Numbered from the stretch's first letter, positions 18,887 to 36,047 are shown. The stretch is 64,000 bases of DNA from Rheinheimera texasensis (GCF_964031785.1 NZ_CAXIRE010000014.1:59927-123926), one strand, 5' to 3'. Notes: generated by a model not told the origin, from the sequence alone. Translations and numbers: made by a program.

Positions 18887-20917
18887 TTATTCACTGGAAC
18901 CTTTGCCAATATAACGCTCCAGCCACTGGCCAAATTCGTGGTACCAGTAAATCGAGTTTTGCGGTTTTAAGATCCAGTGATTTTCGTCCGGGAAATACAC
19001 CAGGCGTGCATCGACGCCTTTGCCTTTGAGCACACCATAAAGCGCTAAACCCTGAGTGACCGGCACGCGATAATCCTGTTCGCCATGAGTGATTAACATC
19101 GGTGTATTGAAGTTTTCCGCGAACATGGCCGGACTGGCTTTCAGCACATTGTCTTTATCTTTCCACGGTGAGCCGGCATAGGCATAAGTGCGCATTAAAG
19201 TACTGTCGGAGGCAAACTGCGCCATCAGATCATAAACACCGGCATGGTTAACCAGTGCTTTATATTTAGTGCTGTGGCCGGCTATCCAGCTGACCAGATA
19301 ACCGCCATAACTGCCACCGGCCGCTGCGACGCGGCTTTCGTCGATATAACCGCGGGAAGTCATGTAATCGATGGCGGCTTCGCTGTCAAAAAACGGCTTA
19401 GTCGCATGGTCGCCGTGAATGGACGCAGTGAACGCTTCGCCAAAACCGGTCGAACCGTGGAAGTTTGGCATAATCACCACATAGCCCATGGCGGCAAACA
19501 CTTGCGGGTGCCAGCGCGTACCAAAAGCGTCGTTAAAAGCACCATGTGGGCCGCCATGTAACAGGCTCAGCAGTGGCCAGCGTTTTTTCGCGTCAAAGTT
19601 GGGCGGGAAAATCACAAACATCTGGATCGGTTTGTTGTCCGAGCCCGGATACGTCATGTCTTCGACTTTGCCCCATTGGGTGTTTTGCTGCAGCGCCGTG
19701 TTGATCTGGCTGATCTGTTTTAAGGTGCGGCTTTTATTGTCGAGCAGGAAAATCTCCGGCAACTGACTGATGCCATGCTGTACCAGTGCAAATTGCGCTG
19801 GGCCTGCCACTTGTACTTGCTCATTAGTGGCCTGACGCAGCACTTGTTTCACCGGGCCGCCGGCGGCCGGCACGGAAAATAACGACACCCGCGCTTTGTC
19901 TTCGGCGAGGAAATACAACATCTGGCTGTCTTTGCTGAAGAACCACTGCTGTGGCGATAAATCGATATTGCCGGCCAGCACTGTGGCGGTTTTTGCGGCT
20001 AAATCAAACCGGGTCAGTTTGACGTTGTCATTGCCAAAATCGGTGCGTTTTTGTGCGCCGTACAGCAGGCTGCGGCCGTCCGGGCTGAATGCCGGTTTGC
20101 TGTCGTCGGCCGGATTGGCTTCGGTCAGATTCACTGCTTTACCACTGCCGTCGGTCGGCACTAAATACACGTCATAATTTAAGCTGTTGTAAGGCGGTTT
20201 ACTGCTGACAGCACTCAAGGCCAGCTGTTTGCCGTCTGGCGATAAATCAAATTCGACACCGCCGTCGAGGCTGGTCCATTGCGCCCAGCCCGGTGTCAGC
20301 GCCTGTACGTCGCCAGTTGCAATGTTGTAGGCGAAAAACTGGGTAACTTTGTCGTCGGTGAGGAAATGGTCCCAGTAGCGGTAAATGCGATTTTCGCTGA
20401 CTTTGGCCGAATGCAGTGGTTTTTTCTCATCTTTTAATAAGTTGAAATCACCGGCAAAACCTGCCGGCACTTCGGCACTGAACAGGATTTTTTTGCCATC
20501 CGGGAAAAACCGCGGATTACTGACGCTGACCGACAAATCAGTCAGCTGGCGGGCCTCACCACCGCCTAACGTCAGCAGTTGTAGCTGATTTTTTTCGCCA
20601 TCGCGTTTGGAAACAAACACCAGCTGACGGCCATCCGGGCTCCAGGCTGGCTGATTGTCGGCGGCCGGATGGAAGGTGAGCTGGGTTTGTCGGCCGGAAC
20701 CGAGTTCCAGCAGGTGTAAATCGGTATTGCTTTTGTTTTTCGCCAGATCATAGCGGTTCAGGCTAAAGACCGCGCGCTGACCGTCCGGCGATACCTGCAT
20801 GCCGGTTGGTTTTTGCACCTGATATAAATCAGTGGCGGTCAGTGGCGCGGCTGGCGCCGCCAATACGGCACTCGTAGACAGTGTGAATAACAGAGACAAA
20901 GACAAGGATAATTTCAT
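18887..20917 (-). CDS. Secreted S9-family (prolyl/dipeptidyl oligo)peptidase
   Basis: Signal peptide from ATG 20917, WSPDG/FSPDG propeller repeats, LHGGPH, GGSYGG nucleophile, DYRVP Asp, ENHW His. Confidence 0.92.
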   Translation of the reverse strand: MKLSLSLSLLFTLSTSAVLAAPAAPLTATDLYQVQKPTGMQVSPDGQRAVFSLNRYDLAKNKSNTDLHLLELGSGRQTQLTFHPAADNQPAWSPDGRQLVFVSKRDGEKNQLQLLTLGGGEARQLTDLSVSVSNPRFFPDGKKILFSAEVPAGFAGDFNLLKDEKKPLHSAKVSENRIYRYWDHFLTDDKVTQFFAYNIATGDVQALTPGWAQWTSLDGGVEFDLSPDGKQLALSAVSSKPPYNSLNYDVYLVPTDGSGKAVNLTEANPADDSKPAFSPDGRSLLYGAQKRTDFGNDNVKLTRFDLAAKTATVLAGNIDLSPQQWFFSKDSQMLYFLAEDKARVSLFSVPAAGGPVKQVLRQATNEQVQVAGPAQFALVQHGISQLPEIFLLDNKSRTLKQISQINTALQQNTQWGKVEDMTYPGSDNKPIQMFVIFPPNFDAKKRWPLLSLLHGGPHGAFNDAFGTRWHPQVFAAMGYVVIMPNFHGSTGFGEAFTASIHGDHATKPFFDSEAAIDYMTSRGYIDESRVAAAGGSYGGYLVSWIAGHSTKYKALVNHAGVYDLMAQFASDSTLMRTYAYAGSPWKDKDNVLKASPAMFAENFNTPMLITHGEQDYRVPVTQGLALYGVLKGKGVDARLVYFPDENHWILKPQNSIYWYHEFGQWLERYIGKGSSE

Positions 20918-21040
20918 ACAGGTTGTCCTGACAGAAGGAAACACAATGCCGGCTAGCATAGGGCAAGCGCGGGCTGGCAGGCAACCAGGTGTTGGTTCAG
21001 ACCCGACAGTCGGCGGCGCCAGCCTGACCAATGGCAAGTG

Positions 21041-21889
21041 TCATTGAGTAGGCTGGGCAACAGCAGCTGCGGGGGCTGTTTGCAGATAAGACATCGATAA
21101 ATAACGCTGATAAATCTCAGTGCCTTTATTGGCCTGCAACTGCTGCCACAAGGCGTCAGCGCTGGCGCGCTGCTGTTGGTAAAATTGCCGGCTGAACAGC
21201 AGATAACCGACATTTGAGTGCAAAGCCGGCGTCAGTACTTTCAGGCCTCGCTGCAGAATATTTGGCGACACTACGGATTGGCCGGCGATGTTACACAAAG
21301 TCGTGACCGCATGGACCCGTCCGGCCTGCAGCAGTTCTAAATCCATAGTGCCGGATAAGGTGTAGTGCATCAGCACTTGTTTTGGCCCAGGTACCAGCAG
21401 CGGCGCATAACCCAGCGGTCTTGCCACCACCAGACTATCGATACCGCTGACTTCATGGCCATTCCAGCGCCAGCTGCTGCCGACTTTTTGTACCAGGCAG
21501 GTTTGGTGTTCACTAAACGCACGGTGTGGATCAGGCTGGTTGTTCAGCATCGGATAGACGCCAATGTCTTCACGTTCGGGTCTGTAGCTGGCAACGACGG
21601 CGTCGGTTTCGCCTTGGTGCAGTTTGGCGAGGCACCGTTTCCATGGCCGGCGTTCCAGCTGCAGTCGGATACCAGACATTTTGCTGACCAGCAGCTGTAA
21701 GTGTTCGATCGTCGCGCCCGGATTGTCTTTAGGGACCAGCGCGCCCTGGCCGCGGTAATAAGGTTCGAGTGGTTTATCTTCGTAGCAAAACCGCAATACC
21801 ACTGCATTGGTGGCTGTTGTGTCATCTGCCAGCACGTCTATGGCAGTCAGGCTACAAAGCAGGCTCAACACAATTTTTATTCGCAGCAC
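21041..21889 (-). CDS. Orphan periplasmic solute-binding protein (family 3-like)
   Basis: Signal peptide, PWKRCL..L..GE.DA, GYLLFS; no permease or ATPase adjacent. Confidence 0.7.
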   Translation of the reverse strand: MLRIKIVLSLLCSLTAIDVLADDTTATNAVVLRFCYEDKPLEPYYRGQGALVPKDNPGATIEHLQLLVSKMSGIRLQLERRPWKRCLAKLHQGETDAVVASYRPEREDIGVYPMLNNQPDPHRAFSEHQTCLVQKVGSSWRWNGHEVSGIDSLVVARPLGYAPLLVPGPKQVLMHYTLSGTMDLELLQAGRVHAVTTLCNIAGQSVVSPNILQRGLKVLTPALHSNVGYLLFSRQFYQQQRASADALWQQLQANKGTEIYQRYLSMSYLQTAPAAAVAQPTQ

Positions 21890-21944: not shown

Positions 21945-21980
21945 AAAAAACCGGGCAAAGAGGCATGACTTTGCCACGGT
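21945..21980 (-). terminator. Terminator of the permease-esterase operon
   Basis: Minus strand ACCG(T)GGCAAAG-TCATGCCT-CTTTGCCCGGT followed by T run. Confidence 0.7.
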
Positions 21981-22042: not shown

Positions 22043-23269
22043 TCATTTCTGCGGTTGTTGTAAAAAGGCCTTTAACTCAGGCGCTATCGTCTGAATATTC
22101 AATAATCCATCTAAGTGGCCCATCTGGCCGGGGATCTGCGACAGCTGGTTGGCTGTGCTGCGGGCGCCGTTAGTATCCAGCGCTTGCTGGCTTTGCTGCG
22201 CCATCAAAGGTGTCAGCAATAAGTCGCCCGCCGCTGGCAACCACAGTACCGGCGCTTTGATGTTTTTGATGGCTTGTTGCCAGTTGTCGCCCATGCCGGC
22301 ACGCCATAACTGCGAAGCGCGCACCAGATACAGCAAATGATTGGCGTCCTGCAGCGCGGCGCGCTGAGTGGCGACTGCCAGTAATTGATCAAGCGCAGTG
22401 AAACTGGCGCGGATATCCTGATGGGCGGCTTTGTCCAAGCGTAAATCCGGGTACTTCTGGTTAAAACCGGCTGGATTTAACGCATCTAAAGTCACCCAGG
22501 CCAGCGCCATGGCAAGCCCTGCAGTGGGTTGTTGCGGTTTGTCGTAATAATCGCCTTGTTGCCAGTGCGGATCGGCTTTAATCGGATAAGCCCAACGTTC
22601 TAACTTGATGGCGCTGTAAGCATCGATATAAGCAGTACCGATCACCGGCACCAGCCGCTGCACCCGCTCTGGGTAACGCTGCGCCCATTCAATCGCCTGA
22701 AAAGAACCCATCGAAGCACCGACTACTGCGTGTAGCTTGTTGATGCCAAGACTGTCTAACAATGCTTTTTGCACTTCAACAAAATCGGTGATGGTCACCA
22801 CCGGAAAGCTCAGGCCATATCTTTTACCTGTCGCCGGATTGATGCTGGCAGGGCCTGTGGTGATGACATGTGGATCATTGGCATTGGCATTGGCATTGAC
22901 CAATGTATCAACGCTAACCACATAAAACTGATTGGTATCAATGGCTTTGCCAGGACCAATGATGGCATCCCAATAACCGGGCGCTGCGTCTGTCGCCTGA
23001 TAACGGCCGGCTGCATGTGAAGTGCCGGAAAAATAATGCGTAATTAAAATCACATTCGATTTGTCAGTATTCAGCTTGCCATAGGCTTCCCAGCCGACTT
23101 GCACTTGCTTTAACTGCGCGCCGTTTTGCGTGATAAAAGTTGGCAGTTCAAAGCGCTGTTTTTGCACCAGCGGCAGTTCGGCGGCCTGACTGGCGGCAGC
23201 GCACAGCAGGCCCAACACCAGACTCGATAAAAACCAGCCGTATTTGATGAAATGTCGCATGCGAAACAA
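22043..23269 (-). CDS. Exported MetX(HTA)-fold alpha/beta hydrolase (E22-like esterase)
   Basis: Signal peptide ending ASQA, LITHYFSGTSHAAG, GYWD..IGPGKAIDT, GASMG Ser, GDLL Asp, GHLDG His. Confidence 0.85.
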   Translation of the reverse strand: MFRMRHFIKYGWFLSSLVLGLLCAAASQAAELPLVQKQRFELPTFITQNGAQLKQVQVGWEAYGKLNTDKSNVILITHYFSGTSHAAGRYQATDAAPGYWDAIIGPGKAIDTNQFYVVSVDTLVNANANANDPHVITTGPASINPATGKRYGLSFPVVTITDFVEVQKALLDSLGINKLHAVVGASMGSFQAIEWAQRYPERVQRLVPVIGTAYIDAYSAIKLERWAYPIKADPHWQQGDYYDKPQQPTAGLAMALAWVTLDALNPAGFNQKYPDLRLDKAAHQDIRASFTALDQLLAVATQRAALQDANHLLYLVRASQLWRAGMGDNWQQAIKNIKAPVLWLPAAGDLLLTPLMAQQSQQALDTNGARSTANQLSQIPGQMGHLDGLLNIQTIAPELKAFLQQPQK

Positions 23270-23286: not shown

Positions 23287-24588
23287 TTAAAACCACTGAA
23301 ACATTAAAATCGCCAGGCCAGTCCCGAGCGCCGGCACTACCACTGTCACTGCCGCGACGGGCCAATAAGCCTGCTGGTGACTTTCGCCACAAATGGCCCG
23401 GATGGTGGTGACCACATAACCGTTATGCGGCAGTGAATCCAAAGCACCGGATGAAATCGCCACCACACGGTGTAACTCTTCCGCGTCGACCCCCCGGTCC
23501 AGATAGACAGGCGCCAGTTCCGGCAGCGCAATGGCCTGACCGCCGGAGGCAGAGCCGGTAAGGCCAGCAATAGCACTGACCGCGACCGCAGCACCCAAGA
23601 GTTCTGGCCCAGGCAGATGGGTCATGGTTTGAACTATGTCGTTAAACGCAGGTGTTAGCTTGGCGACAGCACCAAAACCCACCACAGCCGCCGTGTTGCC
23701 GATGGCCAGCAGAGAGCCCAACACGCCTTCGTTAATGGCTTTATCCAGGCTTTGAATAAAACGCCGGTTCAGCACATACAGCGCCAGCACGCCGCCGCTC
23801 AGCGCTACGATGAGCGCCGCCTGCTGCAGACTATGATGCAGCCAGTTCGATAAACCCAGCACCACCAACAGCGGAATCAGGCCCATTAACGGATGCGGTA
23901 ACTTGCGGTCAGTCAGCTGCGGGTCGCTGTCGCGGCCAATAAAGACTTCACCTTGCGCCACGGCTTTGCGAATCATCTGACTTAACCAGGCATAACCAAA
24001 AGCGGCCATAAAAATCGCCACCACAATACTGACTTCCCAGCCGGCATAAGGCGAAGTGTGCAGATATTGAATAGGGATCCAGTTCTGGATTTCCGGCGAG
24101 CCGGCGGAAGTCATGGTAAAGGTTACTGAACCCAAACCCAGCGCGGCCGGAATAAAACGGCGCGGTAAGTTGGCGTCTTTAAACAAACTGACCGCCATCG
24201 GGTAGGCCGAAAACGCCACGACAAACACCGAGACACCACCATAGGTCAACACGGCACAAGCCAGCACCACAGCGGCAACGGCGTGCGCCCTGCCCAGTTT
24301 TTGCACAATCCATAAAGCGACAGCATCGGCGGCGCCGCTGTGTTCCATCAGTTTGCCGAACAGCGAACCTAACAAAAACATCAGAAACCAGGCGGCGACA
24401 AAACCGGAAAAACCGTTCATGTAAGCGTGGATAAAATCGGTATTACCACTGGCTTGCCAAAACGGAATACCGTTAGTGACAGCGACAAACAAGGCGCACA
24501 AAGGCGCCAAAATAAACAGGTTCAGCCCGCGCATCGTCAGCCAAATCAGCAGGCAGAGCCCGAGCAACAAGCCGGTTAAACTCAGCAT
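23287..24588 (-). CDS. GntP-family H+/monocarboxylate permease
   Basis: About 12 TM segments, GSLFGKLMEHSGAA, LTYGGVS.FVV.F, AGLTGSASGG, LDSLPHNG. Confidence 0.88.
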   Translation of the reverse strand: MLSLTGLLLGLCLLIWLTMRGLNLFILAPLCALFVAVTNGIPFWQASGNTDFIHAYMNGFSGFVAAWFLMFLLGSLFGKLMEHSGAADAVALWIVQKLGRAHAVAAVVLACAVLTYGGVSVFVVAFSAYPMAVSLFKDANLPRRFIPAALGLGSVTFTMTSAGSPEIQNWIPIQYLHTSPYAGWEVSIVVAIFMAAFGYAWLSQMIRKAVAQGEVFIGRDSDPQLTDRKLPHPLMGLIPLLVVLGLSNWLHHSLQQAALIVALSGGVLALYVLNRRFIQSLDKAINEGVLGSLLAIGNTAAVVGFGAVAKLTPAFNDIVQTMTHLPGPELLGAAVAVSAIAGLTGSASGGQAIALPELAPVYLDRGVDAEELHRVVAISSGALDSLPHNGYVVTTIRAICGESHQQAYWPVAAVTVVVPALGTGLAILMFQWF

Positions 24589-24616: not shown

Positions 24617-24690
24617 AGTCTGAGCCATCAGGCAGCGTATCTCTATAGTACTAAGGTACAGATTAACATTTCATCAGTTCAGCCTAAAGT
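24617..24690. promoter_or_regulatory. Back-to-back promoters sharing a central activator-type palindrome
   Basis: GTAC-TAAG-GTAC (24648-24659); 25 nt from it on each side lie -10-like hexamers CAGACT (minus, 24622-24617) and TAAAGT (plus, 24685-24690). Confidence 0.65.
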
Positions 24691-24858
24691 AAGGCTATCA
24701 GTCTGAGCGTTTTGTCACTGATTTGCCTGTGCCCCGATTTTTATGACAGCGGGTATTAAGCGGGTTAGTATCACAGCGAAACGCCCGGAGCAACTATAAC
24801 AAGTAACTGAAATAATTCAGAAAGATAAGTGATAGCCGAGATCAGCAGGAGATGCCCG

Positions 24859-27096
24859 ATGGCCCAGAATAACTATAAATTAAACCGTACCACTGACAAT
24901 TCGTTTAAACCGGCGCTGTTGGCGCTGACCATCAGCGCTGTGCTGGCAGGCCCTGTGTATGCACAGGATGCGGCAGCTGGCAAAGATGTCAAAAAAGAAG
25001 AAGCAGCACTGGAAGTGATCCAGGTCACGGCGCGACGCACTGCAGAAAACCTGCAATCGGTGCCGGTGGCGGTGACGTCGATTGGCGCCGAAGATTTAAA
25101 ACAAAAAGGTATCGAAAACCTGACGGCGATTCAACAGCAATCACCGAATACTACGCTGCAGGTGTCGCGCGGCACTAACAGCACTTTAACCGCCTATATT
25201 CGCGGTATTGGTCAGCAAGATCCGCTGTGGGGTTTTGAGCCTGGCGTCGGCATCTACATTGATGATGTGTACATGGCGCGTCCACAAGGCGCGGCAATGG
25301 ATATCTATGATGTCGAGCGCATTGAAGTATTACGCGGCCCGCAAGGTACTTTATACGGCCGTAACACTATCGGTGGCGCGGTGAAATATGTCACTAAGCC
25401 TTTGAGCGGTGAAGACGAGTTTGCTATTCGCGGCACTGTCGGCAGCTACCATCAGCGCGACTTAAAACTGTCTGGCCAGAAAGCCATTACTGACAAGCTG
25501 TCCATCGGTGGAGCCGGCGCATTTTACGACCGTGATGGTTTTGGTAAATACCTCAATACCGGCGCAGAAAACTACAACAAAGACATCATCACTGGTCGTT
25601 TCAGTGCGCAGTATCAGGCGCTGGACAATCTTCGTTTTAACTTTGCCTACGACAAAACCAAAGATGATTCCAATTCCAAAGGCGGCCACCGCTTAACGCC
25701 GAGTTTACTGACCAAAGAAACGCCGCCGTCGAATGTCTACGACTCCAACACCAGTATGCCGGCCACTAACATGGTCCGTACCGAAGGCCACTCACTGACA
25801 ATGGCCTGGGATATCAATGCCGACTGGACGATGAAAGCCATCACTGCCAAGCGTGAAGGCGTCACCGATACCAACATCGACTTTGACTCGACCAAACTGC
25901 CTTCGCTCGATGTGCCGGCGTTTTATGAAGATGAACAAACTTCACACGAATTGCAGTTCCTGTATAACAGTGGCCCGTTGAAGTTTGCGTCAGGCCTGTA
26001 TTCGTTTGAAGGCGACGCCTGTGGTGCCTTTGGTACTGTGCTGGTGTCTGGCCTTGGCGTGACCATCGAAAACGGTGGCTGTGTGCAAACGGATTCTTTT
26101 GCCGGTTATGCGCAGGGTACTTATCAGCTGAATGACCAGTGGTCGTTCACTTTGGGTGGTCGGTATACCGAAGACGACAAAGACGCCAACGTGTATCGTT
26201 ATGTGTATCTTGGCTACAAACTGCCACGCAATACCGCGACCAAAATCGGCACCCAGTCGGATTTTAAAGGCAGTGAAAGTTTCAGCCATTTCTCGCCACG
26301 TGTTGGTTTTGAATATCAGGCCAATGACAGCATGATGGTGTATGGCTCTTATACTGACGGCTTTAAATCCGGTGGTTTTGATATGCGTGGTAACCAGTCG
26401 GTCAACCCAAATGCCGGCGATCCGTACCAGCCAGAAACGGTCGATACTTATGAGCTGGGTCTGAAAAGCGAATGGCTGGACCGCCGGCTGCGTTTAAATG
26501 CCGCAGTGTTTGCCTCAGCTTATGATGATATGCAAGTGACAGTGCAACGTGCGGTGAATAACACTGTGGCATCACAAGTACTGAACGCCGCCAGCGCTGA
26601 TATCAATGGTATTGAGCTGGAAGCCACGGCGGTGGCCAGCGATGCCCTGCAATTTAACCTGATTGTTGGTTATACCGACGCCAAGTTTAACGAAGTGCTG
26701 TTTTATGATGCCGTGACTAAAACCACGTCAGACGTGTCTGGGTTATGGTCCTTTGCCAACACGCCAGAACTGACCGCGACTTTAGGCGGCAAATACACAG
26801 TGGCGATGTATGGCGGCGAACTGGTGCTGAATGCGAACTTGTCCCACCGCAGCGAAACGCAGATTTTTGAGCTGCCATCGATGCTGGACTACGGCGGTTA
26901 CACGTTGTTTAACGCCGGCGCCACCTGGTATTCCGCTGATGGCCACTGGGACGTGTCACTGCAGGGCCGTAACTTAGGCGATAAGATCACCCGCATCGCC
27001 GGTTACAACTTCCCGCTGCTGGCGGCCGAACAAACCATCACGGCCTATTATGGTGACCCAAGAACAGTGAGTTTGTCACTGGGTTACCGGTTCTGA
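24859..27096 (+). CDS. TonB-dependent receptor
   Basis: AGGAG RBS, signal peptide, TonB box EVIQVTARR, RIEVLRGPQGTLYGRNTIGGA, terminal GYRF. Confidence 0.95.
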   Translation: MAQNNYKLNRTTDNSFKPALLALTISAVLAGPVYAQDAAAGKDVKKEEAALEVIQVTARRTAENLQSVPVAVTSIGAEDLKQKGIENLTAIQQQSPNTTLQVSRGTNSTLTAYIRGIGQQDPLWGFEPGVGIYIDDVYMARPQGAAMDIYDVERIEVLRGPQGTLYGRNTIGGAVKYVTKPLSGEDEFAIRGTVGSYHQRDLKLSGQKAITDKLSIGGAGAFYDRDGFGKYLNTGAENYNKDIITGRFSAQYQALDNLRFNFAYDKTKDDSNSKGGHRLTPSLLTKETPPSNVYDSNTSMPATNMVRTEGHSLTMAWDINADWTMKAITAKREGVTDTNIDFDSTKLPSLDVPAFYEDEQTSHELQFLYNSGPLKFASGLYSFEGDACGAFGTVLVSGLGVTIENGGCVQTDSFAGYAQGTYQLNDQWSFTLGGRYTEDDKDANVYRYVYLGYKLPRNTATKIGTQSDFKGSESFSHFSPRVGFEYQANDSMMVYGSYTDGFKSGGFDMRGNQSVNPNAGDPYQPETVDTYELGLKSEWLDRRLRLNAAVFASAYDDMQVTVQRAVNNTVASQVLNAASADINGIELEATAVASDALQFNLIVGYTDAKFNEVLFYDAVTKTTSDVSGLWSFANTPELTATLGGKYTVAMYGGELVLNANLSHRSETQIFELPSMLDYGGYTLFNAGATWYSADGHWDVSLQGRNLGDKITRIAGYNFPLLAAEQTITAYYGDPRTVSLSLGYRF

Positions 27097-27250: not shown

Positions 27251-27898
27251 ATGATTGCCATTATTGCTGATGACCACCCGTTATTCCGTATTGCTTTATC
27301 GCAGGCACTGCAGACGATTCTTGGCCTTGAGGCCAGCCTGTATCAGGCGCACAGCATGGCGCAGTTGTGGCCTTTATTGCGCGAACATCCGGATACCCAA
27401 TTAATTCTGCTCGATCTGAAATTGCCGGATGCTGAAGGTTTTGCCGGTTTAACCGCGCTGCGTACTGAATATCCGGATATTTCTATTCTGATGGTGTCGG
27501 CGATTGAAGACCCGGCCGTGATTAAACAAGCGTTGCAATTAGGCGCTGCCGCTTATCTGCCCAAATCGGCGCCGCTGGACGTGTTAACCGAAGCGGTGGA
27601 CGCTGTGCTGGCGGGGGACACCTGGTTGCCGGCGGATTTACAACAAAGTGTGGCGCAGGCGCAGGATTTGATTGACGCCGAATTTGCCGGGCGGCTCGAG
27701 CAGCTGACGCCGCAACAATTTCGTGTGTTAAAAATGATTGCCGATGGTTTGCTGAATAAACAAATCGCTTATGAAATGAATGTGCAGGAAACCACCGTCA
27801 AGCAGCATGTGTCGGCGATTTTGCGCAAACTCAATGTCAATAATCGTACCCTGGCCGGGATCTTATTTGAAAAACTGAAACTTCCGGATACCCTGTAG
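27251..27898 (+). CDS. NarL/LuxR-family response regulator, CrbR/ErdR-like
   Basis: ADDHPLFR, LLDL phosphoacceptor, PKS; HTH LTPQQFRVL.MIADGLLNKQIAYE..V.ETTVK.HVSAILRKL. Confidence 0.9.
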   Translation: MIAIIADDHPLFRIALSQALQTILGLEASLYQAHSMAQLWPLLREHPDTQLILLDLKLPDAEGFAGLTALRTEYPDISILMVSAIEDPAVIKQALQLGAAAYLPKSAPLDVLTEAVDAVLAGDTWLPADLQQSVAQAQDLIDAEFAGRLEQLTPQQFRVLKMIADGLLNKQIAYEMNVQETTVKQHVSAILRKLNVNNRTLAGILFEKLKLPDTL

Positions 27899-27938
27899 CC
27901 TCTAACTGCCAGTCTTGAGTCTTCCGGGAGAGCGCCAG

Positions 27939-28517
27939 ATGCGCCGAATCACTTTGTTTGTCCTGTCTTGTTCCACTATGTTCAGTATTTTTCCCAGCCA
28001 TGCTACTCAGCTGCAGCCGCAAACCGGTCACTGGCGCAGTCAGCATCAGGTGCTGGTCAATGGCCAGGATATTCTGCAGCAGATGAAAGCACTGCAACAA
28101 CAAATGCTGGCGGCGGTGCCGGCGGAACAACGGGCTTTAGTCGCCGGTATGATGCCGAAAAAAGACTTAAGTACGGCGCAGGAATGTTTAACTGCGGCTG
28201 AAGTCGCGTTGTTAAAAACGCCGGAGCAATGGCTGGCCAGAGCCAAACAGCAGTTACCGCGTTGCCAGTTACAACTGACCGGCAGCACGACCAATTCGGT
28301 GTCAGTCAAAGGCCAGTGTCAGGATCAGGGCGGCTACACCGGCTCGTTGCAGGGCACTGTCACATTAAAAACACCGCAATGGATGCAGATGAACATGCAG
28401 GGCACCGGCCAGTACAAAATGCCGCTGCCGGGCCAGGCACAAAACGGTGACGTGCAGTTTAAACTCGATAGTGACTCGCGTTGGCAAAGTGCCAGCTGCC
28501 CGGCCGGTATGCGGTAA
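27939..28517 (+). CDS. Secreted DUF3617-like protein
   Basis: Signal peptide, TGHW, ECLT, four spaced cysteines ending RWQSASC. Confidence 0.6.
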   Translation: MRRITLFVLSCSTMFSIFPSHATQLQPQTGHWRSQHQVLVNGQDILQQMKALQQQMLAAVPAEQRALVAGMMPKKDLSTAQECLTAAEVALLKTPEQWLARAKQQLPRCQLQLTGSTTNSVSVKGQCQDQGGYTGSLQGTVTLKTPQWMQMNMQGTGQYKMPLPGQAQNGDVQFKLDSDSRWQSASCPAGMR

Positions 28518-28606
28518 GCCGGCGGGACTCGTCTGTTAACCTGATGTTGTGATTGAAATGTGTTTCCTGCATGCTGAAATCTTTCGCAGCAATACAGGAC
28601 AATCAG

Positions 28607-29833
28607 ATGACAACAGCAACATCAGGCAGCGCCGGCCAGCCCAGCTGGCAAAAAACACCGCAAACCGGTTTACAGGTCAATTCAGTGGCAGTCAGTCCGG
28701 ATGGTCAACTGACCGTTGGCGGCACCTCCAGCGAATTTGGCAGCGGGCAGTTTAATTTTTATGGCTTTGACGCGACTGGCCAGCAACTCTGGTCGGTGCC
28801 GGTTACCGCCGCCAACGTCACGCAGGGCATTTTCTGGGTCGCCGTCAGTGACGATAAACGTTTTGCCGCCTGTGGTGGCGAAACCAGTAAAACCTGTGGT
28901 TTTTTGTGTATCCTCGATGCCAGCACTGGCAGTATTCTGTTTCAGGATAACAACTTACCTGCCCGCGTCAATCAACTGACTTTCAGCAGTGACGGCACTT
29001 TGCTGCTGGCGGATTTCCAGCACGAATTACGCTTGTATCACTATGCCAGCGGCAGCACCTTGGTGCCGGTCTGGTCACTGAGTGACAGCTTGGCGCTTTC
29101 GGCCGACTTTTCCAGTTACAGCGCTGTGCTGGCGCCAAACGGCGGCCGGGTTTGGGTCGGCGCTATCAACTACAACGTGAAACCGGTCTACACCGGGCTG
29201 GTGCAGCAGATTGCGCTGGATAACGGCAAATTCGGCGCAGCAACCAGTTATCAGCAAGCACAAGGGGTGATGCGGGTGGTGACGACCACAGATGGCACTT
29301 ATGCCGCCGCGGCGTTACACGATGGCAGCTGCGCGTTTTTTCAGGCGGTACAGCCCAGCACAGCTTTTGTCTATAAACCGGCGCTGACCGGGCTTAATAT
29401 CGCCTATGCCATCGCCATCACTGAAACGCCAGCCAAAGAACTGGTGATAGTGGTCGGTGCTAACCAAGGCGAAGCCGGGGTGTTGTACCGGGTGGATGCA
29501 GAGCAAACAGCGTCTGAGATCGCCAACTATCCCATCTGGGGGCCAGTGCTGAAATGGAGCAAACCGGTGCAATATGCGGTGAATCCGGGCGTGACTTTAG
29601 ACGCTGCAGCAACCCTGGTCAGTGTCACTGACGGTAAACCGGATGAAAGCTCCGGCGGCAGCGATCAAAAGGAATCACCGGGTAACTTTTATCTGTTCGA
29701 CGCTTGCTCTGGGCAGCAACTGTGGCAATATGGCACCAAGCTGATGAACTGGCCAATGATGCTGACGCCGGACGGTAAAACCGCAGTGGGTGGCAGTGAT
29801 GATGGCAGTATTTATTACTGGAATTTGCAGTAA
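28607..29833 (+). CDS. Beta-propeller (WD40/PQQ-like) protein without signal peptide
   Basis: Repeated VAVSPDG / VAVSDD / TFSSDG / LTPDG blades, QQLWS and QQLWQY, GSDDGSIYYW. Confidence 0.7.
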   Translation: MTTATSGSAGQPSWQKTPQTGLQVNSVAVSPDGQLTVGGTSSEFGSGQFNFYGFDATGQQLWSVPVTAANVTQGIFWVAVSDDKRFAACGGETSKTCGFLCILDASTGSILFQDNNLPARVNQLTFSSDGTLLLADFQHELRLYHYASGSTLVPVWSLSDSLALSADFSSYSAVLAPNGGRVWVGAINYNVKPVYTGLVQQIALDNGKFGAATSYQQAQGVMRVVTTTDGTYAAAALHDGSCAFFQAVQPSTAFVYKPALTGLNIAYAIAITETPAKELVIVVGANQGEAGVLYRVDAEQTASEIANYPIWGPVLKWSKPVQYAVNPGVTLDAAATLVSVTDGKPDESSGGSDQKESPGNFYLFDACSGQQLWQYGTKLMNWPMMLTPDGKTAVGGSDDGSIYYWNLQ

Positions 29834-31303
29834 GTGAAACCTGAAGGTCTGGCCCAAGCGCCGCTGTTTGACCGCCAACGTTGGCAAGACCGGCTGCAGC
29901 AATCCTGGTTGCTGCGCAACCTGTTGTTATTGCTGCTGTGGCTGCTGGTGTTTGAGATCGGCTGGCTGGTGGAATATACCCATCACGCCAGTGTCTGGTA
30001 TCCGGTCGCGGGCCTGACTTTCGCATCGTTGTTATTACTGGGTTTTTCTGTGTTACCGGCCTTGTTGACAGGCTGCGTGCTTATCACTTTTTACACCGCC
30101 CGCCACTACAATATTCAGCTGCCGCCGTGGCAAATTCTCGAGGCCGGTTTGTTATTTGGCCTGGCGCATATTTTACCTTATGCCGTCGGTGCTATTGCCT
30201 TGCGCACGCTGGCCAAACGCGGCGCCCGCGATATTAGCCGGATCATCGTATCCTTCCTGGTGATTGCAGCCGTCAGTTCATTTTGTGCCACCTGGCTGGT
30301 GCTGCCGACTTTGGTGATCACTGACATGATGACGGAAGCTGAGATCGCCTCAACCTGGCTGCCGTTCTGGATTGGTGATATGGCCGGTGTCATGGTGCTG
30401 GCGCCGTTTTTTGTTGGCCTGCTGAGTCGGGTTTTACCTGGCGCGCTGTTTCGTCTGACCGATATGGCGGGCCTGCAACAGCAAAAGTTCAGCTCGCGTT
30501 ATCTGTTGAAACTGTTGCTGAACGGTCTGTTACTGACTGCATGCATGCTGCTGGCGAAAGTGACAGATTCACCAAACAGCGCTTTTGCGATTTTTTTCCT
30601 GGTGATCCCGCATATGTGGATCGCCTGTTCCGAATCGGCATTACTTAATGTCAGTAGTGTGGCGCTGTCGAGTTTCCTGATTGCCTTTTGGGTGCATCTG
30701 TTTGATTTGATGGACTATGTGATGGTCTATCAGTTTGCGATCAACGTCATTGCCGCGAACACCTTATTTGGCCTCGCCATTCCGACTTTATTGGCAGATA
30801 ACCTGCAACTGCGCAAAGTGGCTTTTACTGACAGCCTGACACAAGTGGCGTCCCGTGACCGGCTGGAGCAAAGGGCAACGCTTGAGATCAGCCGTAGCCG
30901 GCACGAACAGCGGCCTTTGTCGCTGTTGGTGTTTGATATCGATTATTTCAAAAAAATTAATGATGAGTTTGGTCACCATGTTGGCGATCAGGCGCTGCAG
31001 CAACTGGCGCGTTTAGCCCAGCTGTCGCTGCGACCGACGGATTTGCTTGGCCGTTTTGGCGGCGATGAATTTGTCGTGTTATTGCCACAAACCGCGCAGC
31101 CGGCCGCTTTGTTGATTGCCGAGCGGATTATCAGCGAATTACGCCAGGTCTACATCTGTGATGTCCATCCGCTGACCGCCAGTTTTGGCGTCGCGCAATT
31201 ACAGCCAGACGAAGATTACGAACGGCTGTTCCGCCGCGCCGACCGGGCTTTGTATCAGGCCAAGCTGGCCGGGCGCAATCAGGCTTGTGTCGCGGCCGAC
31301 TAA
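29834..31303 (+). CDS. MASE1-GGDEF diguanylate cyclase
   Basis: Multi-TM N-terminus with WYPVAG and WIGDMAG, TDSLT, DIDYFKKINDEFGH..GD, RPTD I-site, intact GGDEF. Confidence 0.9.
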   Translation: MKPEGLAQAPLFDRQRWQDRLQQSWLLRNLLLLLLWLLVFEIGWLVEYTHHASVWYPVAGLTFASLLLLGFSVLPALLTGCVLITFYTARHYNIQLPPWQILEAGLLFGLAHILPYAVGAIALRTLAKRGARDISRIIVSFLVIAAVSSFCATWLVLPTLVITDMMTEAEIASTWLPFWIGDMAGVMVLAPFFVGLLSRVLPGALFRLTDMAGLQQQKFSSRYLLKLLLNGLLLTACMLLAKVTDSPNSAFAIFFLVIPHMWIACSESALLNVSSVALSSFLIAFWVHLFDLMDYVMVYQFAINVIAANTLFGLAIPTLLADNLQLRKVAFTDSLTQVASRDRLEQRATLEISRSRHEQRPLSLLVFDIDYFKKINDEFGHHVGDQALQQLARLAQLSLRPTDLLGRFGGDEFVVLLPQTAQPAALLIAERIISELRQVYICDVHPLTASFGVAQLQPDEDYERLFRRADRALYQAKLAGRNQACVAAD

Positions 31304-31320: not shown

Positions 31321-34300
31321 TCAGCGCAGCAGGCGTTGCAGCAACCGCTTCAGATTGGCCGGTTTGAGTGGTTTCAGCATAAAGTGAAAGCCGTTATTCA
31401 GTGCATGGTCGCGGGTTTGTTGTTGTTGATCGGCGGAATGGATTAACACCGGCACCTGCAACGCATAATGCTGCTGCAGTTGCATCGCCACTTCGACACC
31501 GGTCGCGCCCTGGTCCAGATGATAATCAAACAACAATAAATCCACCGGATGACCTTCGCTGAGCCAATGCAGCGCCTGAGAAGGCTGCTGCGCCACCAGT
31601 ACCTGACAATCCCAGCTTCTGAGCAATGCCGCGACCGCGCCGGATAATTGCGGGTCGTTATCGAGCAATAAGATTGTTTTACCGCGGAAACTGACCGACT
31701 GCTCACGTGGTTGCAGCGCAGGTGCTGCAGTCGCGCCCGATGCACAGACCGGCACTGTCACGGCAAAACAGCTGCCTTTGCCTGGTTCGGAGTGCAAAGT
31801 CAGCGCATGCTGCAGCAAATCGCTGATGCGCTGGCTGATGGCAAGACCAATGCCAAGGCCCTGATTATTCGCTTCTTTACCCTGCTGAAATTCCTGAAAA
31901 ATCCGTTGTTGTTCATCCGGACTGATGCCGACGCCGGTATCCCAGACTTCAATCCGCACCGCCGGCAGCCCTTGCCAGTGGCAGCGCCGGCAGCCCAACA
32001 GGATTTTGCCTTGTGGGGTGTACCGCAGGGCGTTGGCGACCAGATTCTGCACCACACGGCGTAGCAGACGGCTGTCAGTATCCACCCAAAGCCGGCTTGG
32101 CCGGTAGCGGAAACGAATCGGTTTACCGGTTGAGATTAAGCCGGCTTCGCGGGCGATTTGGTCCAGCAGGCTGGTCATTGCTACCGGCGCTTTTTGCGCT
32201 TTAATCACGCCGGCATCCAGTTTGGTCAGTTCCAGAATACCGGCCAGGAGTTCTTCAGCGGAATTTAACGACGCCGCTAAATCTTTCGCCAGTTGCTGCA
32301 CCTGGCCATCGCTGCTTTTCTCGCGGATCAGCCCGCAAAATAATGCGGCGGCATTAAAGGGTTGCAGCAAATCGTGGCTGGCTGCAGCAAAAAAACGGTT
32401 TTTGCTGGCGGTTTGTTCTTCCAGCTGTTGTTTGGCGGCGGCCAATTGTTGATTAAGTTGCTCCAGCTCGGCGGTGCGGCTCATCACCCGTTGCTCCAGC
32501 GTGCTGTTACTGGCTTCGAGCTGTTGTTGCACCTCGATAAAAGAGCTGACATCGCTGTAGGTTGTAACAAAACCACCGCCCGGCAGCGGATGGCCCTGCA
32601 TCTCAAACACCCGGCCGTCGCGCTGGCGGCGCTGAAAACGATAACTGCTGCCCTGGCGTAAAAAATTCAGCCGTTTTTCTACTTCGGCGCTGATTTGCGT
32701 GGCATCGGGTAGGGCACTGTCATGGAACCAGCCGCGTTCGGCGTTATAACGAATTAAATCCGCGACCGGCCGGCCTACTTCAATCAGGCCAGGCGGATAA
32801 GCAAACATCTGCAGATAACGTTGGTTCCAGGCGATCAGGCGTAAATCGGCGTCCACCACGCTGATGCCCATACTGATATTGTCGATAGTGGCGCGCAGCA
32901 GCGCCTGATTAAACAGATAGACCTGACTGGCTTCGTCGACAAAACGCGCGACAGATTCCAGCGGCAGCTGACTGTTTTTGCCGGCGGCGTTCAGTAACAA
33001 CCGCATCGAAGCACCGCCAACCACAGCTGCCAGCGTACGCTCTGTGCTTTGCTGCAGCGCTTGTGGCGCGCGCGTCTCCAGCTGAGGTGAAACCGATTTA
33101 AACTGACGCTGCAGCAATAAGCGCGCTTCACGCTCGCCGGCAAAACGCCGCACCAGCAGATAACAATCCTGTACTGTCAGCTGTGGCGCCACCTGTTGCG
33201 GTTTTGACTGGCTCTGGCGGAAAAAACGTGCACTTTCCAGATACTCCGTCAGCCGGGTGTGGCTGAGCTGACTGACCAGCAACAGCAGCAAGGTATTCAT
33301 GCTCAGACTGACCACCACCCCGAGGCTTATCAGATCAAACTGGCCACCGAGCAAGGCATTGGGCGCCAACGCCTGCCAGCCAAAAGGCCCCTGGCTCAGC
33401 CAGTCCCAGCGGATTAAACCGGCGCGGCTTAATTCCGGTAACAACAGAATGTAGGCCCACAAACTGGCGCCGCAGAGTAAACCGGCCAAAGCGCCCTGAC
33501 GATTGACCCGGCGGTTCAGCAGGCCAAAAATCAGCGCCGGTGCCAGCTGGGCAATTAACGCAAAGGCCATCAGGCCAAGCTGAGCCAGACCGGTTTCAGT
33601 GCCAATCAATAAGTAGTACAGATAGCCCAGCGTCAGCACGCTTAACATCGATAAACGGCGCAGCGTCACCATGCGGATCCAGGGTTTGCCGTCGGCCGGT
33701 TTCTGCTGCTGGCGGTATATCAGTGGCGTCAGTAAGTCGTTGGTGATCATAATGCCAAGCACCACAGTGGCGACTATCACCATACTGGTGGCAGCAGAAA
33801 AACCACCTAAGTAAGCCAGCAGTGCCATATCGGTGCGATTCGCCGACAGCGGCAGCTGCAACACCACTAAATCGATGCTGGCGCTCTGGCCCAGTAACAA
33901 AGTACCGGCCAGTGCCACCGGCAATGTAAACAGGCTCATCAGCAGTAAATAGCCGGGGAAGATCCAACGCGCATAGCGCAGATGACCCAAATGCTGGATC
34001 TCAACAAAACTGACGTGAAACTGGCGCGGCAGGCATAAAGTCGCGACAAAACCGAGCAAGACGTGGATCCAATACACTGACCAGGGCGCGCCCTGACTTT
34101 GCAGCTGCTGGACGTCGGCTGAGACGGCTGCCTTGGCAAAAATATCGCTAAAACCATCAAACAGCCCAAACACGACAAAAAATCCGACGGCCAGCAGTGC
34201 TAATAATTTCACCAGCGATTCAAAGGCAATAGCCGTCATCAGGCCGGGATTGGGCTGATGCGCTTTGGCGCTGCGACCGACAAATAACATGGCAAATATC

Positions 34301-34833
34301 GCCAGCCATAAGCTGACGTAAAGCCCGGTGTCCTGATACCAGGGCCCGCCGCTGCTGCTGCCGACCAAGGCGTTGATACTGGTCGACACCGCCTGTAGCT
34401 GCAAAGCGATATAAGGAATAACCGCCATCAACACGATGAGTGTGGTGATCACGGCTAATAAGCGGGAATGCCCATAGCGGGTGGCGATAAAGTCGGCGAC
34501 TGAAGTGATACGTAAACGCCGGCAGACAATAGCGATGCGGCTAATCAGGCCAAACGCGAACCAGAACAACAACAAAGAACCGATATAAGTCGGCGGGATC
34601 CACCAGCCATTGACTGCGGCCTGCGCGGTCACGCCATAAAAGGCCCAGCTGGTACAGTAGATGGCGAGGGCAAAACTAAACACCCAGGGCGCGAGCGGAT
34701 GGCGGCCAGTCAGACGCCGGCCGAGCAGCCCGACGCTGTACAGTACCGCCAGATACAGCAGCGACAGCACGGCTATGCTGCCAATGCCAATGCTGCCCTG
34801 ACTCAGAATCATTTCAGAATTTACCGCATTCAC
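31321..34833 (-). CDS. SLC5 symporter-fused hybrid histidine kinase (CrbS/MxtR-like)
   Basis: 13-TM SLC5 region (AIYCTSWAFYG, PYIALQL, LPRQFHV, GGFSAATSMVIV), PAS, SHDLLQP His box, DTGVGI / GLGIGL, C-terminal REC (LFDYHLD); alternative start 34812. Confidence 0.92.
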   Translation of the reverse strand: MNAVNSEMILSQGSIGIGSIAVLSLLYLAVLYSVGLLGRRLTGRHPLAPWVFSFALAIYCTSWAFYGVTAQAAVNGWWIPPTYIGSLLLFWFAFGLISRIAIVCRRLRITSVADFIATRYGHSRLLAVITTLIVLMAVIPYIALQLQAVSTSINALVGSSSGGPWYQDTGLYVSLWLAIFAMLFVGRSAKAHQPNPGLMTAIAFESLVKLLALLAVGFFVVFGLFDGFSDIFAKAAVSADVQQLQSQGAPWSVYWIHVLLGFVATLCLPRQFHVSFVEIQHLGHLRYARWIFPGYLLLMSLFTLPVALAGTLLLGQSASIDLVVLQLPLSANRTDMALLAYLGGFSAATSMVIVATVVLGIMITNDLLTPLIYRQQQKPADGKPWIRMVTLRRLSMLSVLTLGYLYYLLIGTETGLAQLGLMAFALIAQLAPALIFGLLNRRVNRQGALAGLLCGASLWAYILLLPELSRAGLIRWDWLSQGPFGWQALAPNALLGGQFDLISLGVVVSLSMNTLLLLLVSQLSHTRLTEYLESARFFRQSQSKPQQVAPQLTVQDCYLLVRRFAGEREARLLLQRQFKSVSPQLETRAPQALQQSTERTLAAVVGGASMRLLLNAAGKNSQLPLESVARFVDEASQVYLFNQALLRATIDNISMGISVVDADLRLIAWNQRYLQMFAYPPGLIEVGRPVADLIRYNAERGWFHDSALPDATQISAEVEKRLNFLRQGSSYRFQRRQRDGRVFEMQGHPLPGGGFVTTYSDVSSFIEVQQQLEASNSTLEQRVMSRTAELEQLNQQLAAAKQQLEEQTASKNRFFAAASHDLLQPFNAAALFCGLIREKSSDGQVQQLAKDLAASLNSAEELLAGILELTKLDAGVIKAQKAPVAMTSLLDQIAREAGLISTGKPIRFRYRPSRLWVDTDSRLLRRVVQNLVANALRYTPQGKILLGCRRCHWQGLPAVRIEVWDTGVGISPDEQQRIFQEFQQGKEANNQGLGIGLAISQRISDLLQHALTLHSEPGKGSCFAVTVPVCASGATAAPALQPREQSVSFRGKTILLLDNDPQLSGAVAALLRSWDCQVLVAQQPSQALHWLSEGHPVDLLLFDYHLDQGATGVEVAMQLQQHYALQVPVLIHSADQQQQTRDHALNNGFHFMLKPLKPANLKRLLQRLLR

Positions 34834-34880: not shown

Positions 34881-35633
34881 CTAGCGCGCCGTCCAGCCAC
34901 CGTCGAGCACCAGCGTTTGCGCCGTGATATGGCGGGCCGCGGCTGTGGTCAGAAACACTGCGGTTGCGGCAATTTCATCGACGCCAATAAAGGCTTTTTG
35001 TGGCATTGGCGCCAGCATGATTTTTTCGATGACTTCGGTTTCGCTGAGCTGATGTTCTTTGCACTGAGCAGCAATTTGCGCATCTACCAATGGCGTACGC
35101 ACATAAGCCGGGCAGATAGTATTGATAGTGAAATCAATATCAGCGTTCTCCAGTGCTACCACTTTACTAAAGCCAAGCAAACCGTGTTTGGCCGCGACAT
35201 AAGCCGACTTAAACGGCGAGGCGACTAAGGCGTGAATAGAGCCGATGTTCACAATCCGGCCAAAACCGCGGCTGCGCATGCCTGGCAATAAGGCTTTACT
35301 CAGCATCGCCGGGCCGGTCAGCATCACCTGTAACAGCTGCTGCCATTTGTGTTCCGGAAATTCTTCCAGGCGCGCCACGTGCTGGATACCGGCGTTATTG
35401 ACCAATACATCCACCTGGCCTGCGGCTGCAGCGGTATTTTCAATACTGTCCTGAGAGGTTAAATCCAGCAGCAACGCGCTGGCTTTGGCGCCGCTGGCGA
35501 TCAGTTCTGCCGCTTTTTGTTCGGCGACGGCCAGATTAATATCGGCCAGGATCACTTCGTCGCCCTGAGCGGCATACGCCTGTGCCACCGCAAAGCCAAT
35601 ACCGCCGCTGCCGCCTGTGATCAGTACCCGCAT
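34881..35633 (-). CDS. bdhA: D-3-hydroxybutyrate dehydrogenase
   Basis: TGGSGGIG, NNAGIQHV, SPFKSAYVAAKHG, ICPAYVRTPLVDAQI, MPQKAF, DGGWTA: HBDH subfamily signatures. Confidence 0.9.
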   Translation of the reverse strand: MRVLITGGSGGIGFAVAQAYAAQGDEVILADINLAVAEQKAAELIASGAKASALLLDLTSQDSIENTAAAAGQVDVLVNNAGIQHVARLEEFPEHKWQQLLQVMLTGPAMLSKALLPGMRSRGFGRIVNIGSIHALVASPFKSAYVAAKHGLLGFSKVVALENADIDFTINTICPAYVRTPLVDAQIAAQCKEHQLSETEVIEKIMLAPMPQKAFIGVDEIAATAVFLTTAAARHITAQTLVLDGGWTAR

Positions 35634-35666: not shown

Positions 35667-35713
35667 AGGGTAGAAGTTTGCGGTCAGGCGGTAAACGGTA
35701 CTTTAGTGCTATA
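35667..35713 (-). promoter_or_regulatory. bdhA promoter with the shared palindrome
   Basis: Minus strand TATA-GCACTAAAGTAC-cg-TTTACC-17 nt-TACCCT. Confidence 0.65.
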
Positions 35714-36047
35714 CCGCTGAATGGTTGGCAACAGTCGGTGAAAATAACAACAGCAGTGCAATTAACTCAGACTCTTCACGCATGTAAATTCAAATTAGAT
35801 AGCAGAGAAACTCAGACACAGCCGTTCATAGCGCTGAGCGCTCAGAAAACCGCACAAGACTTTGCCAGAACCCATATCTATGATATGTTTCGGCACATAA
35901 TAAAAAAATTATCTTGTGCTTCCCACGCAGTTTAGACCGTAAAAAACTCTTGATAACAATGTGTTGTGCCATTGTTTCGCGTTAAGTCGGAAAAAGTCCT
36001 GCTCAGTTGCACTTCATTCTGTAGACCTGTCACGTAAGGAATTCTGC

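Follow-up and report, generated by a model that had tools for sequence, protein, structure and literature searches.

A Putative Periplasmic 3-Hydroxybutyrate-Oligomer Hydrolase of the E22 Esterase Family in a TonB-Dependent Locus of Rheinheimera texasensis

A 64,000-nucleotide stretch of the Rheinheimera texasensis genome (GCF_964031785.1 NZ_CAXIRE010000014.1:59927-123926; here called the window, with positions counted from its first letter) contains a gene for an enzyme of the MetX fold. An initial annotation, made from the sequence alone, regarded the product as an exported ester hydrolase that is likely to be misannotated as a homoserine O-acetyltransferase (HTA). The analysis described here places the protein in the E22 family of MetX-like esterases. 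It is probably a serine esterase that is exported by the Sec pathway and, in the periplasm, splits oligomers of 3-hydroxybutyrate (3HB) derived from the breakdown of poly(3-hydroxybutyrate) (PHB); the substrate is read from gene context. With slightly less assurance, the E22 family as a whole can be proposed as a third, non-homologous class of 3HB-oligomer hydrolases, which would supply the middle step of a TonB-dependent PHB system that resembles a polysaccharide-utilization locus, has a 3HB-dedicated paralogue of the CrbS/CrbR two-component system, and is largely confined to the Alteromonadaceae. A role as periplasmic 3HB-oligomer hydrolase in a TonB-dependent PHB-scavenging locus appears to be undescribed, and no paper tying the E22 family to PHB was found among the open-access literature. 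The neighbors of the gene in about 100 related genomes suggest feeding on fragments of a bioplastic by way of the periplasm.

Results

Assignment to the E22 Family

Profile searches matched the window protein to the NCBIfam model NF005262 ("E22 family MetX-like putative esterase"; PRK06765) at 559.5 bits (cut-off 450), aligning residues 34-404 to model positions 1-366 (residue numbers throughout follow the 408-aa open reading frame, ORF), and a whole-genome profile search repeated this result. All MetX models scored below their cut-offs: NF001209 with 254.1 bits (cut-off 331), TIGR01392 with 234.7 (cut-off 500), and NF047916 with 217.3 (cut-off 560). The Pfam matches of the protein were confined to generic α/β-hydrolase (Abhydrolase-type) families and did not include PF10605. 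The closest solved structures were those of esterase E22 (PDB 5JKF) and its L374D mutant (5JKJ), which phmmer recovered at E=1e-122 with 55% identity in a full-length alignment. The same two entries gave the best fold match (template modeling [TM] scores 0.83/0.91) to an AlphaFold2 model of the window protein with a mean pLDDT of 83.9. E22 and the window protein share NF005262 membership, the catalytic triad, a leucine after the catalytic histidine (Leu374 in E22), and a "DP(H/N)VITTGP" insertion; the corresponding motif reads GHLEG in E22 and GHDEG in the L374D mutant. The difference is that the window protein can be seen in its native operon.

The HTA-family motifs and Ser-Asp-His triad listed in the initial annotation are genuine: GASMG (Ser186), GDLL (Asp349), and GHLDG (His385) were all found in the ORF, and the three catalytic residues were invariant in an alignment of 34 E22-family members with 16 true MetX proteins. 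MetX enzymes (PDB 2B61, 2PL5, 6PUX, and 6IOH) also share with the window protein the two-domain architecture of an α/β-hydrolase core with a lid and the deep active-site tunnel, but they are only 23-30% identical to it. In HTAs, the polar tunnel residues that help bind acetyl-CoA and homoserine are the Thr/Ser in HALTGD, Arg227, Tyr234 (helix α-L3), and Asp351 in GHD(G/A)FL (PMC6937278). Of these polar positions, only Ser81 is kept in the window protein. The tunnel arginine, present in 16/16 MetX sequences, is replaced by Leu256 (leucine in 30 of the 34 E22-family members and methionine in the other four); the tyrosine, found in at least 85% of MetX sequences, is replaced by Ala263 (alanine in at least 90% of the E22 family); and the aspartate that follows the catalytic histidine in 16/16 MetX sequences is Leu386, so that GHD becomes GHL, as in 34/34 E22-family members. 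The E22 family, including the window protein, further differs from MetX by an insertion of 6-8 residues ahead of the TTGP motif, and the window protein differs by its signal peptide. MetA (PF04204, 428.6 bits) is encoded on another contig, and a profile search of the genome, which is 99.9% complete, found no MetX above cut-off. Because the protein matches NF005262, fails the MetX models, has lost the tunnel residues, and comes from a genome with MetA and no MetX, it is judged not to be MetX, as initially claimed, and true MetX function is effectively excluded by these sequence criteria.

The second half of the initial claim, that the gene is misannotated, holds for part of the databases: JGI and older NCBI records of homologues do read homoserine O-acetyltransferase, whereas NCBI and UniRef now use the name E22 family MetX-like putative esterase. 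The family and its corrected name are therefore already known, and the family has been crystallized (PDB 5JKF), a point that the initial annotation did not have. On sequence grounds the window protein is an ordinary orthologue within this known family, and family membership predicts esterase activity without homoserine transacetylase chemistry. The next-best fold match after E22 was a Bacillus anthracis "homoserine O-acetyltransferase" (PDB 3I1I), which was also second by identity (34%; TM 0.85/0.92) and ranked ahead of the true HTAs; it likewise has no aspartate after the histidine (GHM), and differs in that its crystallized chain aligns from its residue 4, with no leader visible in it.

Two other HTA-like proteins, CgHle and MekB, were reportedly described as acetyl esterases by Tolzer et al. 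2016. Like the window protein, they would combine the MetX fold with hydrolase rather than transferase activity (PDB 5D6O, 5E4Y/5EFZ), but they belong to a distant subfamily (E ~1e-16 to 1e-18, 22-24% identity) that falls outside NF005262.

A Conserved Export Leader

The N terminus of the esterase, MRHFIKYGWFLSSLVLGLLCAAASQA/AELP, combines a basic n-region with a hydrophobic core and an S-Q-A cleavage motif. By these heuristics and by conservation, the protein is predicted to carry a Sec-type export signal. A comparable leader (a basic n-region followed by a hydrophobic stretch 10 or more residues long) was found in 115 of 120 homologues, with cleavage motifs mostly of the A-x-A type, and the five exceptions resemble start-codon miscalls. 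The leader itself is kept, though its sequence is not conserved. The crystallized E22 construct aligns to the window protein from residue 34 on, just past the leader, and in the AlphaFold2 model, residues 6-23 form an N-terminal helix of low confidence that precedes the folded domain; the N termini of the true MetX proteins in the comparison set are hydrophilic. The Sec signal proposed in the initial annotation is thus corroborated by the leader features, by their recurrence in homologues, and by the point at which the E22 crystal chain begins. Since the genes for a TonB-dependent outer-membrane receptor (TBDR) and an inner-membrane permease flank the esterase gene, a periplasmic site is favored and is the most likely location.

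Lipidation of the window esterase was considered and rejected, as its LLC sequence is no lipobox. The leaders of three Arsukibacterium-type orthologues (P0079, P0088, and P0112) end in a classic lipobox, LLAGC, and in those genera the esterase may be a lipoprotein instead of a soluble periplasmic protein.

Linkage to and Co-occurrence with PHB Genes

In a sample of 400 genomes from the class Gammaproteobacteria, the E22 family was detected in just one, so the esterase is not a housekeeping enzyme. The E22 family is almost confined to one GTDB family, the Alteromonadaceae, where 158 of 301 genomes, from 30 of 59 genera, carry it. The order regulator, TBDR, and divergent permease-E22 pair, with the permease adjoining the E22 gene, is kept in ~50 genomes, down to 51% esterase identity, in Rheinheimera, Arsukibacterium, Alishewanella, Alkalimonas, Aestuariibacter, Glaciecola, and one further Alteromonadaceae isolate. 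Of 14 named genomes, 13 have their single bdhA gene, for 3-hydroxybutyrate dehydrogenase, at a distance of 1-15 kb from E22. The operon of Aestuariibacter and Glaciecola consists of permease, E22, gene X, and bdhA, in that order; the product of gene X carries a signal peptide and passes NF050059, the model for extracellular type-2 short-chain-length polyhydroxyalkanoate (PHA) depolymerases, with 366-367 bits against a cut-off of 280. The closest relative of crystallized E22 in the set (L116, 67% identity) is encoded in an operon of the same kind, with permease, E22, depolymerase, and bdhA.

Arrangements were surveyed in 52 E22-positive Alteromonadaceae genomes from 29 genera. The E22 gene was next to bdhA, to an extracellular-type PHB depolymerase gene, or to both in 42 of them. 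E22, depolymerase, and bdhA were contiguous in 24 genomes; bdhA started 14-32 bp after E22 in nine; bdhA lay 8-16 kb upstream, the arrangement of the window, in six; and E22 was followed by the depolymerase only in three. Across the 301 Alteromonadaceae genomes, 104 had both E22 and the type-2 depolymerase, 54 had E22 only, two had the depolymerase only, and 141 had neither. Thus 104 of the 106 depolymerase carriers have E22 (odds ratio 136, not corrected for phylogeny), and one of the two exceptions is a 70%-complete assembly. Of the 97 genomes for which both sets of coordinates were available, 75 have the depolymerase gene on the same strand as E22 and within 400 bp downstream of it. This linkage and co-occurrence strongly support, rather than prove, the idea raised in the initial annotation that the enzyme is a periplasmic 3HB-oligomer hydrolase, which is probably right.

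Two side observations concern the depolymerases and the E22 paralogues. The linked depolymerases are short (~320 aa when mature; L051:7173-8201 and L057:7234-8250, with L108:1342-2397 likewise short); the type-2 catalytic-domain model spans nearly their whole length, and they are too short to hold a separate substrate-binding domain as well. Alkalimonas delamerensis has two E22 paralogues: one (L054) lies in a Rheinheimera-type cluster with TBDR and permease genes, and the second (51% identity; G460:C14:72277-74352) is directly followed by a depolymerase gene, with another TBDR gene a few kb downstream.

The remaining pathway genes were sought in the genome from which the window comes. It has a type-2 depolymerase with a signal peptide (371 bits), a single 3-hydroxybutyrate dehydrogenase gene, which is the bdhA of the window, and ScoA (257.6 bits). 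Acetoacetyl-CoA synthetase (TIGR01217) gave sub-threshold matches only in this genome, probably to Acs. As no candidate passes the cut-off, this enzyme was rejected as the acetoacetate activator, which ScoA explains better.

A Shared Operator-Like Site

A 15-mer of the form ATAG-YAC-N4-GTAC occurs in exactly two copies in the window, against an expectation of 0.03. The two copies precede the permease-esterase operon and bdhA, respectively (Table 1). Nearly all related loci, those of Aestuariibacter among them, keep the site upstream of the permease gene in this position, and a copy with one mismatch lies ~90 bp upstream of the start of the unlinked depolymerase gene (L108:1279-1293), which is suggestive and not significant alone. 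The CrbS/CrbR-like two-component system encoded nearby probably switches on the gene set through this shared putative operator.

Proposed Pathway and Alternatives

In the proposed pathway, a secreted extracellular type-2 depolymerase would cut PHB to oligomers, and the TBDR would take these, its presumed cargo, into the periplasm. There, the esterase would hydrolyze the oligomers to (R)-3-hydroxybutyrate, with Ser186 as nucleophile, His385 as base, and Asp349 as acid. The GntP-like permease, predicted to be co-transcribed with the esterase, would import the 3HB monomer (again a presumed cargo), BdhA would oxidize it to acetoacetate, and a 3-oxoacid CoA-transferase (ScoAB) would activate the acetoacetate. 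The neighboring CrbS/CrbR-like two-component system would control the gene set by way of the shared operator.

Several points weigh against this assignment. Porins can admit molecules as small as 3HB dimers and trimers, and the TBDR alone is therefore no argument for oligomers as the substrate. Esterase E22, the subject of Li et al. 2017, reportedly came from a deep-sea sediment metagenome and was characterized with model esters only; it is said to have been studied as an isolated enzyme, without genomic context or natural substrate, and the title of that report describes an enzyme without transferase activity. The E22 family has a crystal structure, but neither a natural substrate nor a 3HB-ester assay was found in the literature for any family member. 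In the window's own genome, the depolymerase gene is unlinked and bdhA lies 11.6 kb from the esterase gene. Among the 52 surveyed genomes, four have the depolymerase-bdhA pair elsewhere and six have neither gene, and the type-2 depolymerase is missing from 54 of the 158 E22-positive genomes. The odds ratio given above also suffers from its lack of phylogenetic correction. Because some E22-positive genomes are without depolymerase, bdhA, or both, the family has no strict tie to PHB, and its substrates may include short (hydroxy)acid esters more broadly.

That broader role is the main rival to 3HB-oligomer hydrolysis. On this view, the protein would be exported and would act as a short-chain carboxylesterase or deacetylase on a broad or different range of natural substrates (for example, acetyl esters or those of other short hydroxy or fatty acids), and the linkage to bdhA and the depolymerase would reflect a shared carbon-scavenging regulon rather than a dedicated 3HB-oligomer step. 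This is a possibility to be taken seriously, though a clearly less probable one. The family name says no more than "putative esterase," other esterases with the HTA fold act on acetyl esters (PDB 5D6O, 5E4Y/5EFZ), and the two-component system nearby is similar to the acetate-responsive CrbS/CrbR (MxtR/ErdR) pair. The 54 E22-positive genomes without a type-2 depolymerase fit it as well, as do the six that lack both bdhA and the depolymerase. These six are small and keep the kinase, regulator, TBDR, and permease genes, and they have an acyl-CoA ligase gene between permease and E22, a position that suggests, on the gene order, an alternative route in which the imported acid is turned directly into its CoA thioester. 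The variant fits 3HB too, however, by way of direct CoA activation. The near-constant presence of E22 in depolymerase carriers, the depolymerase directly downstream in 75 of 97 genomes, the nine genomes in which bdhA follows E22 almost immediately, and the operator common to the permease-E22 operon and bdhA weigh against this rival.

As a side observation, the ligase is a 555-aa protein encoded in the E22 cluster of three small-genome genera (2.4-2.8 Mb; L110:6800-8467, and also L111 and L112). Its best NCBIfam matches were to models of 3-(methylthio)propionyl-CoA ligase and long-chain fatty-acid CoA ligase, and only NF004837, a generic model for a subfamily of long-chain-fatty-acid-CoA ligases, passes its cut-off.

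An unlikely alternative keeps the same esterase activity and moves it past the outer membrane: the enzyme would be secreted or surface-attached and act beside the depolymerase, with the monomer entering by another route. A Sec signal alone cannot tell a periplasmic protein from a secreted one, some orthologues of the Arsukibacterium type have the LLAGC lipobox, and extracellular 3HB-oligomer hydrolases are known, as cited in PMC7830162. Nevertheless, genes for an outer-membrane TBDR and an inner-membrane permease flank the esterase gene in nearly every genome, an arrangement best explained by hydrolysis between the membranes, and no secretion-system gene is linked to it. Finally, a genuine MetX of methionine biosynthesis is improbable in the extreme: the protein shares its overall fold and triad with MetX, the MetX models give 190-254 bits, and many database records keep that name, but every one of those scores is below cut-off, the protein has a signal peptide and has exchanged the tunnel Arg, Tyr, and Asp, MetA is encoded elsewhere in the genome, and the nearest solved structure was deposited as an esterase whose report, by its title, denies it transferase activity.

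Relation to Known Oligomer Hydrolases

Hydrolysis of 3HB oligomers, the reaction proposed here for the E22 family, is carried out between PHB depolymerase and BdhA by the canonical 3HB-oligomer hydrolases of the PhaY/PhaZ2 type (PF10605 3HBOH, EC 3.1.1.22) (PMC5877338, PMC7830162). These enzymes differ from E22 in both fold and family, and E22 would be an analogous, non-homologous replacement. The suggestion in the initial annotation that the protein is unrelated to known 3HB-oligomer hydrolase families is consistent with the profile search, which found no PF10605 match in the window's genome and 19 relatives (20 genomes in all); the control genomes were silent too, so this search had no positive control. 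Glaciecola and Aestuariibacter, in which the permease-E22-depolymerase-bdhA operon was found, have been documented to degrade PHBH in seawater (PMC5877338). PHB and PHBH are leading marine-degradable bioplastics, and in seawater Alteromonadaceae such as these two genera belong to their main colonizers (PMC5877338). When the genomes of marine PHA degraders are surveyed, PhaZ and PhaY are the only enzymes looked for, and the oligomer-hydrolase step is often reported missing (for example, PMC7830162). If the E22 assignment holds, it would complete the PHB pathway of this bacterial family, E22 would be an added marker gene for PHA-degradation potential in metagenomes, and a common "homoserine O-acetyltransferase" misannotation would be removed. 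To our knowledge, the TBDR of this locus would then be the first dedicated to polyester fragments.

Organization of the Locus

The coordinates of the esterase gene, its catalytic codons, and the neighboring features are collected in Table 1. The maximal ORF starts at a TTG codon. An in-frame ATG lies nine bases downstream, at 23260, with an AGGA sequence 9 nt upstream of it, and the public database protein of the same sequence (P0001) has 405 aa. Because the AGGA spacing is normal and the public protein is also 405 aa long, the ATG is the likelier start. The permease and esterase genes form a two-gene operon in which the esterase gene is second.

Table 1. Positions of the esterase gene, its catalytic codons, and other features of the window
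Feature	Position	Strand	Remarks
E22-family MetX-like esterase gene	22043..23269	-	Maximal ORF, 408 aa from TTG; 405 aa from the likelier ATG at 23260
Nucleophile Ser186 codon (GASMG)	22712..22714	-	Position calculated from residue number; Ser invariant in 50/50 aligned sequences
Triad acid Asp349 codon (GDLL)	22223..22225	-	Position calculated from residue number
Catalytic His385 and Leu386 codons	22112..22117	-	Positions calculated from residue number; true MetX has Asp after His (GHD)
Predicted Sec signal peptide MRHFIKYGWFLSSLVLGLLCAAASQA	23183..23260	-	Predicted cleavage before AELP; from leader features and conservation
GntP-like (IT superfamily) permease gene	23287..24588	-	First gene of the operon; ~26 nt from its stop to the esterase ATG
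Terminator-like hairpin, then T-run	21954..21975	-	~70 nt past the esterase stop; would end the two-gene operon
Operator-like site ATAGTACTAAGGTAC	24645..24659	+	Upstream of the permease-esterase operon
TonB-dependent outer-membrane receptor (TBDR) gene	24829..27096	+	Divergent from the permease-esterase operon
ErdR/CrbR-like response regulator gene (REC, LuxR HTH)	27251..27898	+	NF041830 229 bits, below cut-off
DUF3617, WD40-like, and MASE1-GGDEF genes	27915-31303		Between regulator and kinase genes
CrbS/MxtR-like hybrid sensor kinase gene (SSF transporter domain, PAS, HisKA, HATPase, REC)	31321..34833	-	Just downstream of bdhA
bdhA, 3-hydroxybutyrate dehydrogenase gene	34881..35633	-	TIGR01963 324.9 bits, cut-off 307
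Second operator-like site ATAGCACTAAAGTAC	35698..35712	-	Upstream of bdhA
DUF819 membrane protein gene	35961-37298	+	Divergent from bdhA
Exported 282-aa protein gene	21041-21889	-	No Pfam or NCBIfam match
S9 (Dpp5-like) peptidase gene	18887-21037	-	With PD40 repeats

The kinase and regulator genes are directly adjacent in many relatives; in the window, three other genes intervene. The DUF819 membrane protein gene is kept beside bdhA in Rheinheimera relatives. Downstream of the esterase gene are genes for an exported 282-aa protein and an S9 (Dpp5-like) peptidase. They were considered as partners of the esterase and rejected because their adjacency to it is limited to close Rheinheimera relatives and the terminator-like hairpin lies between; by gene order, both are probably unrelated to the esterase.

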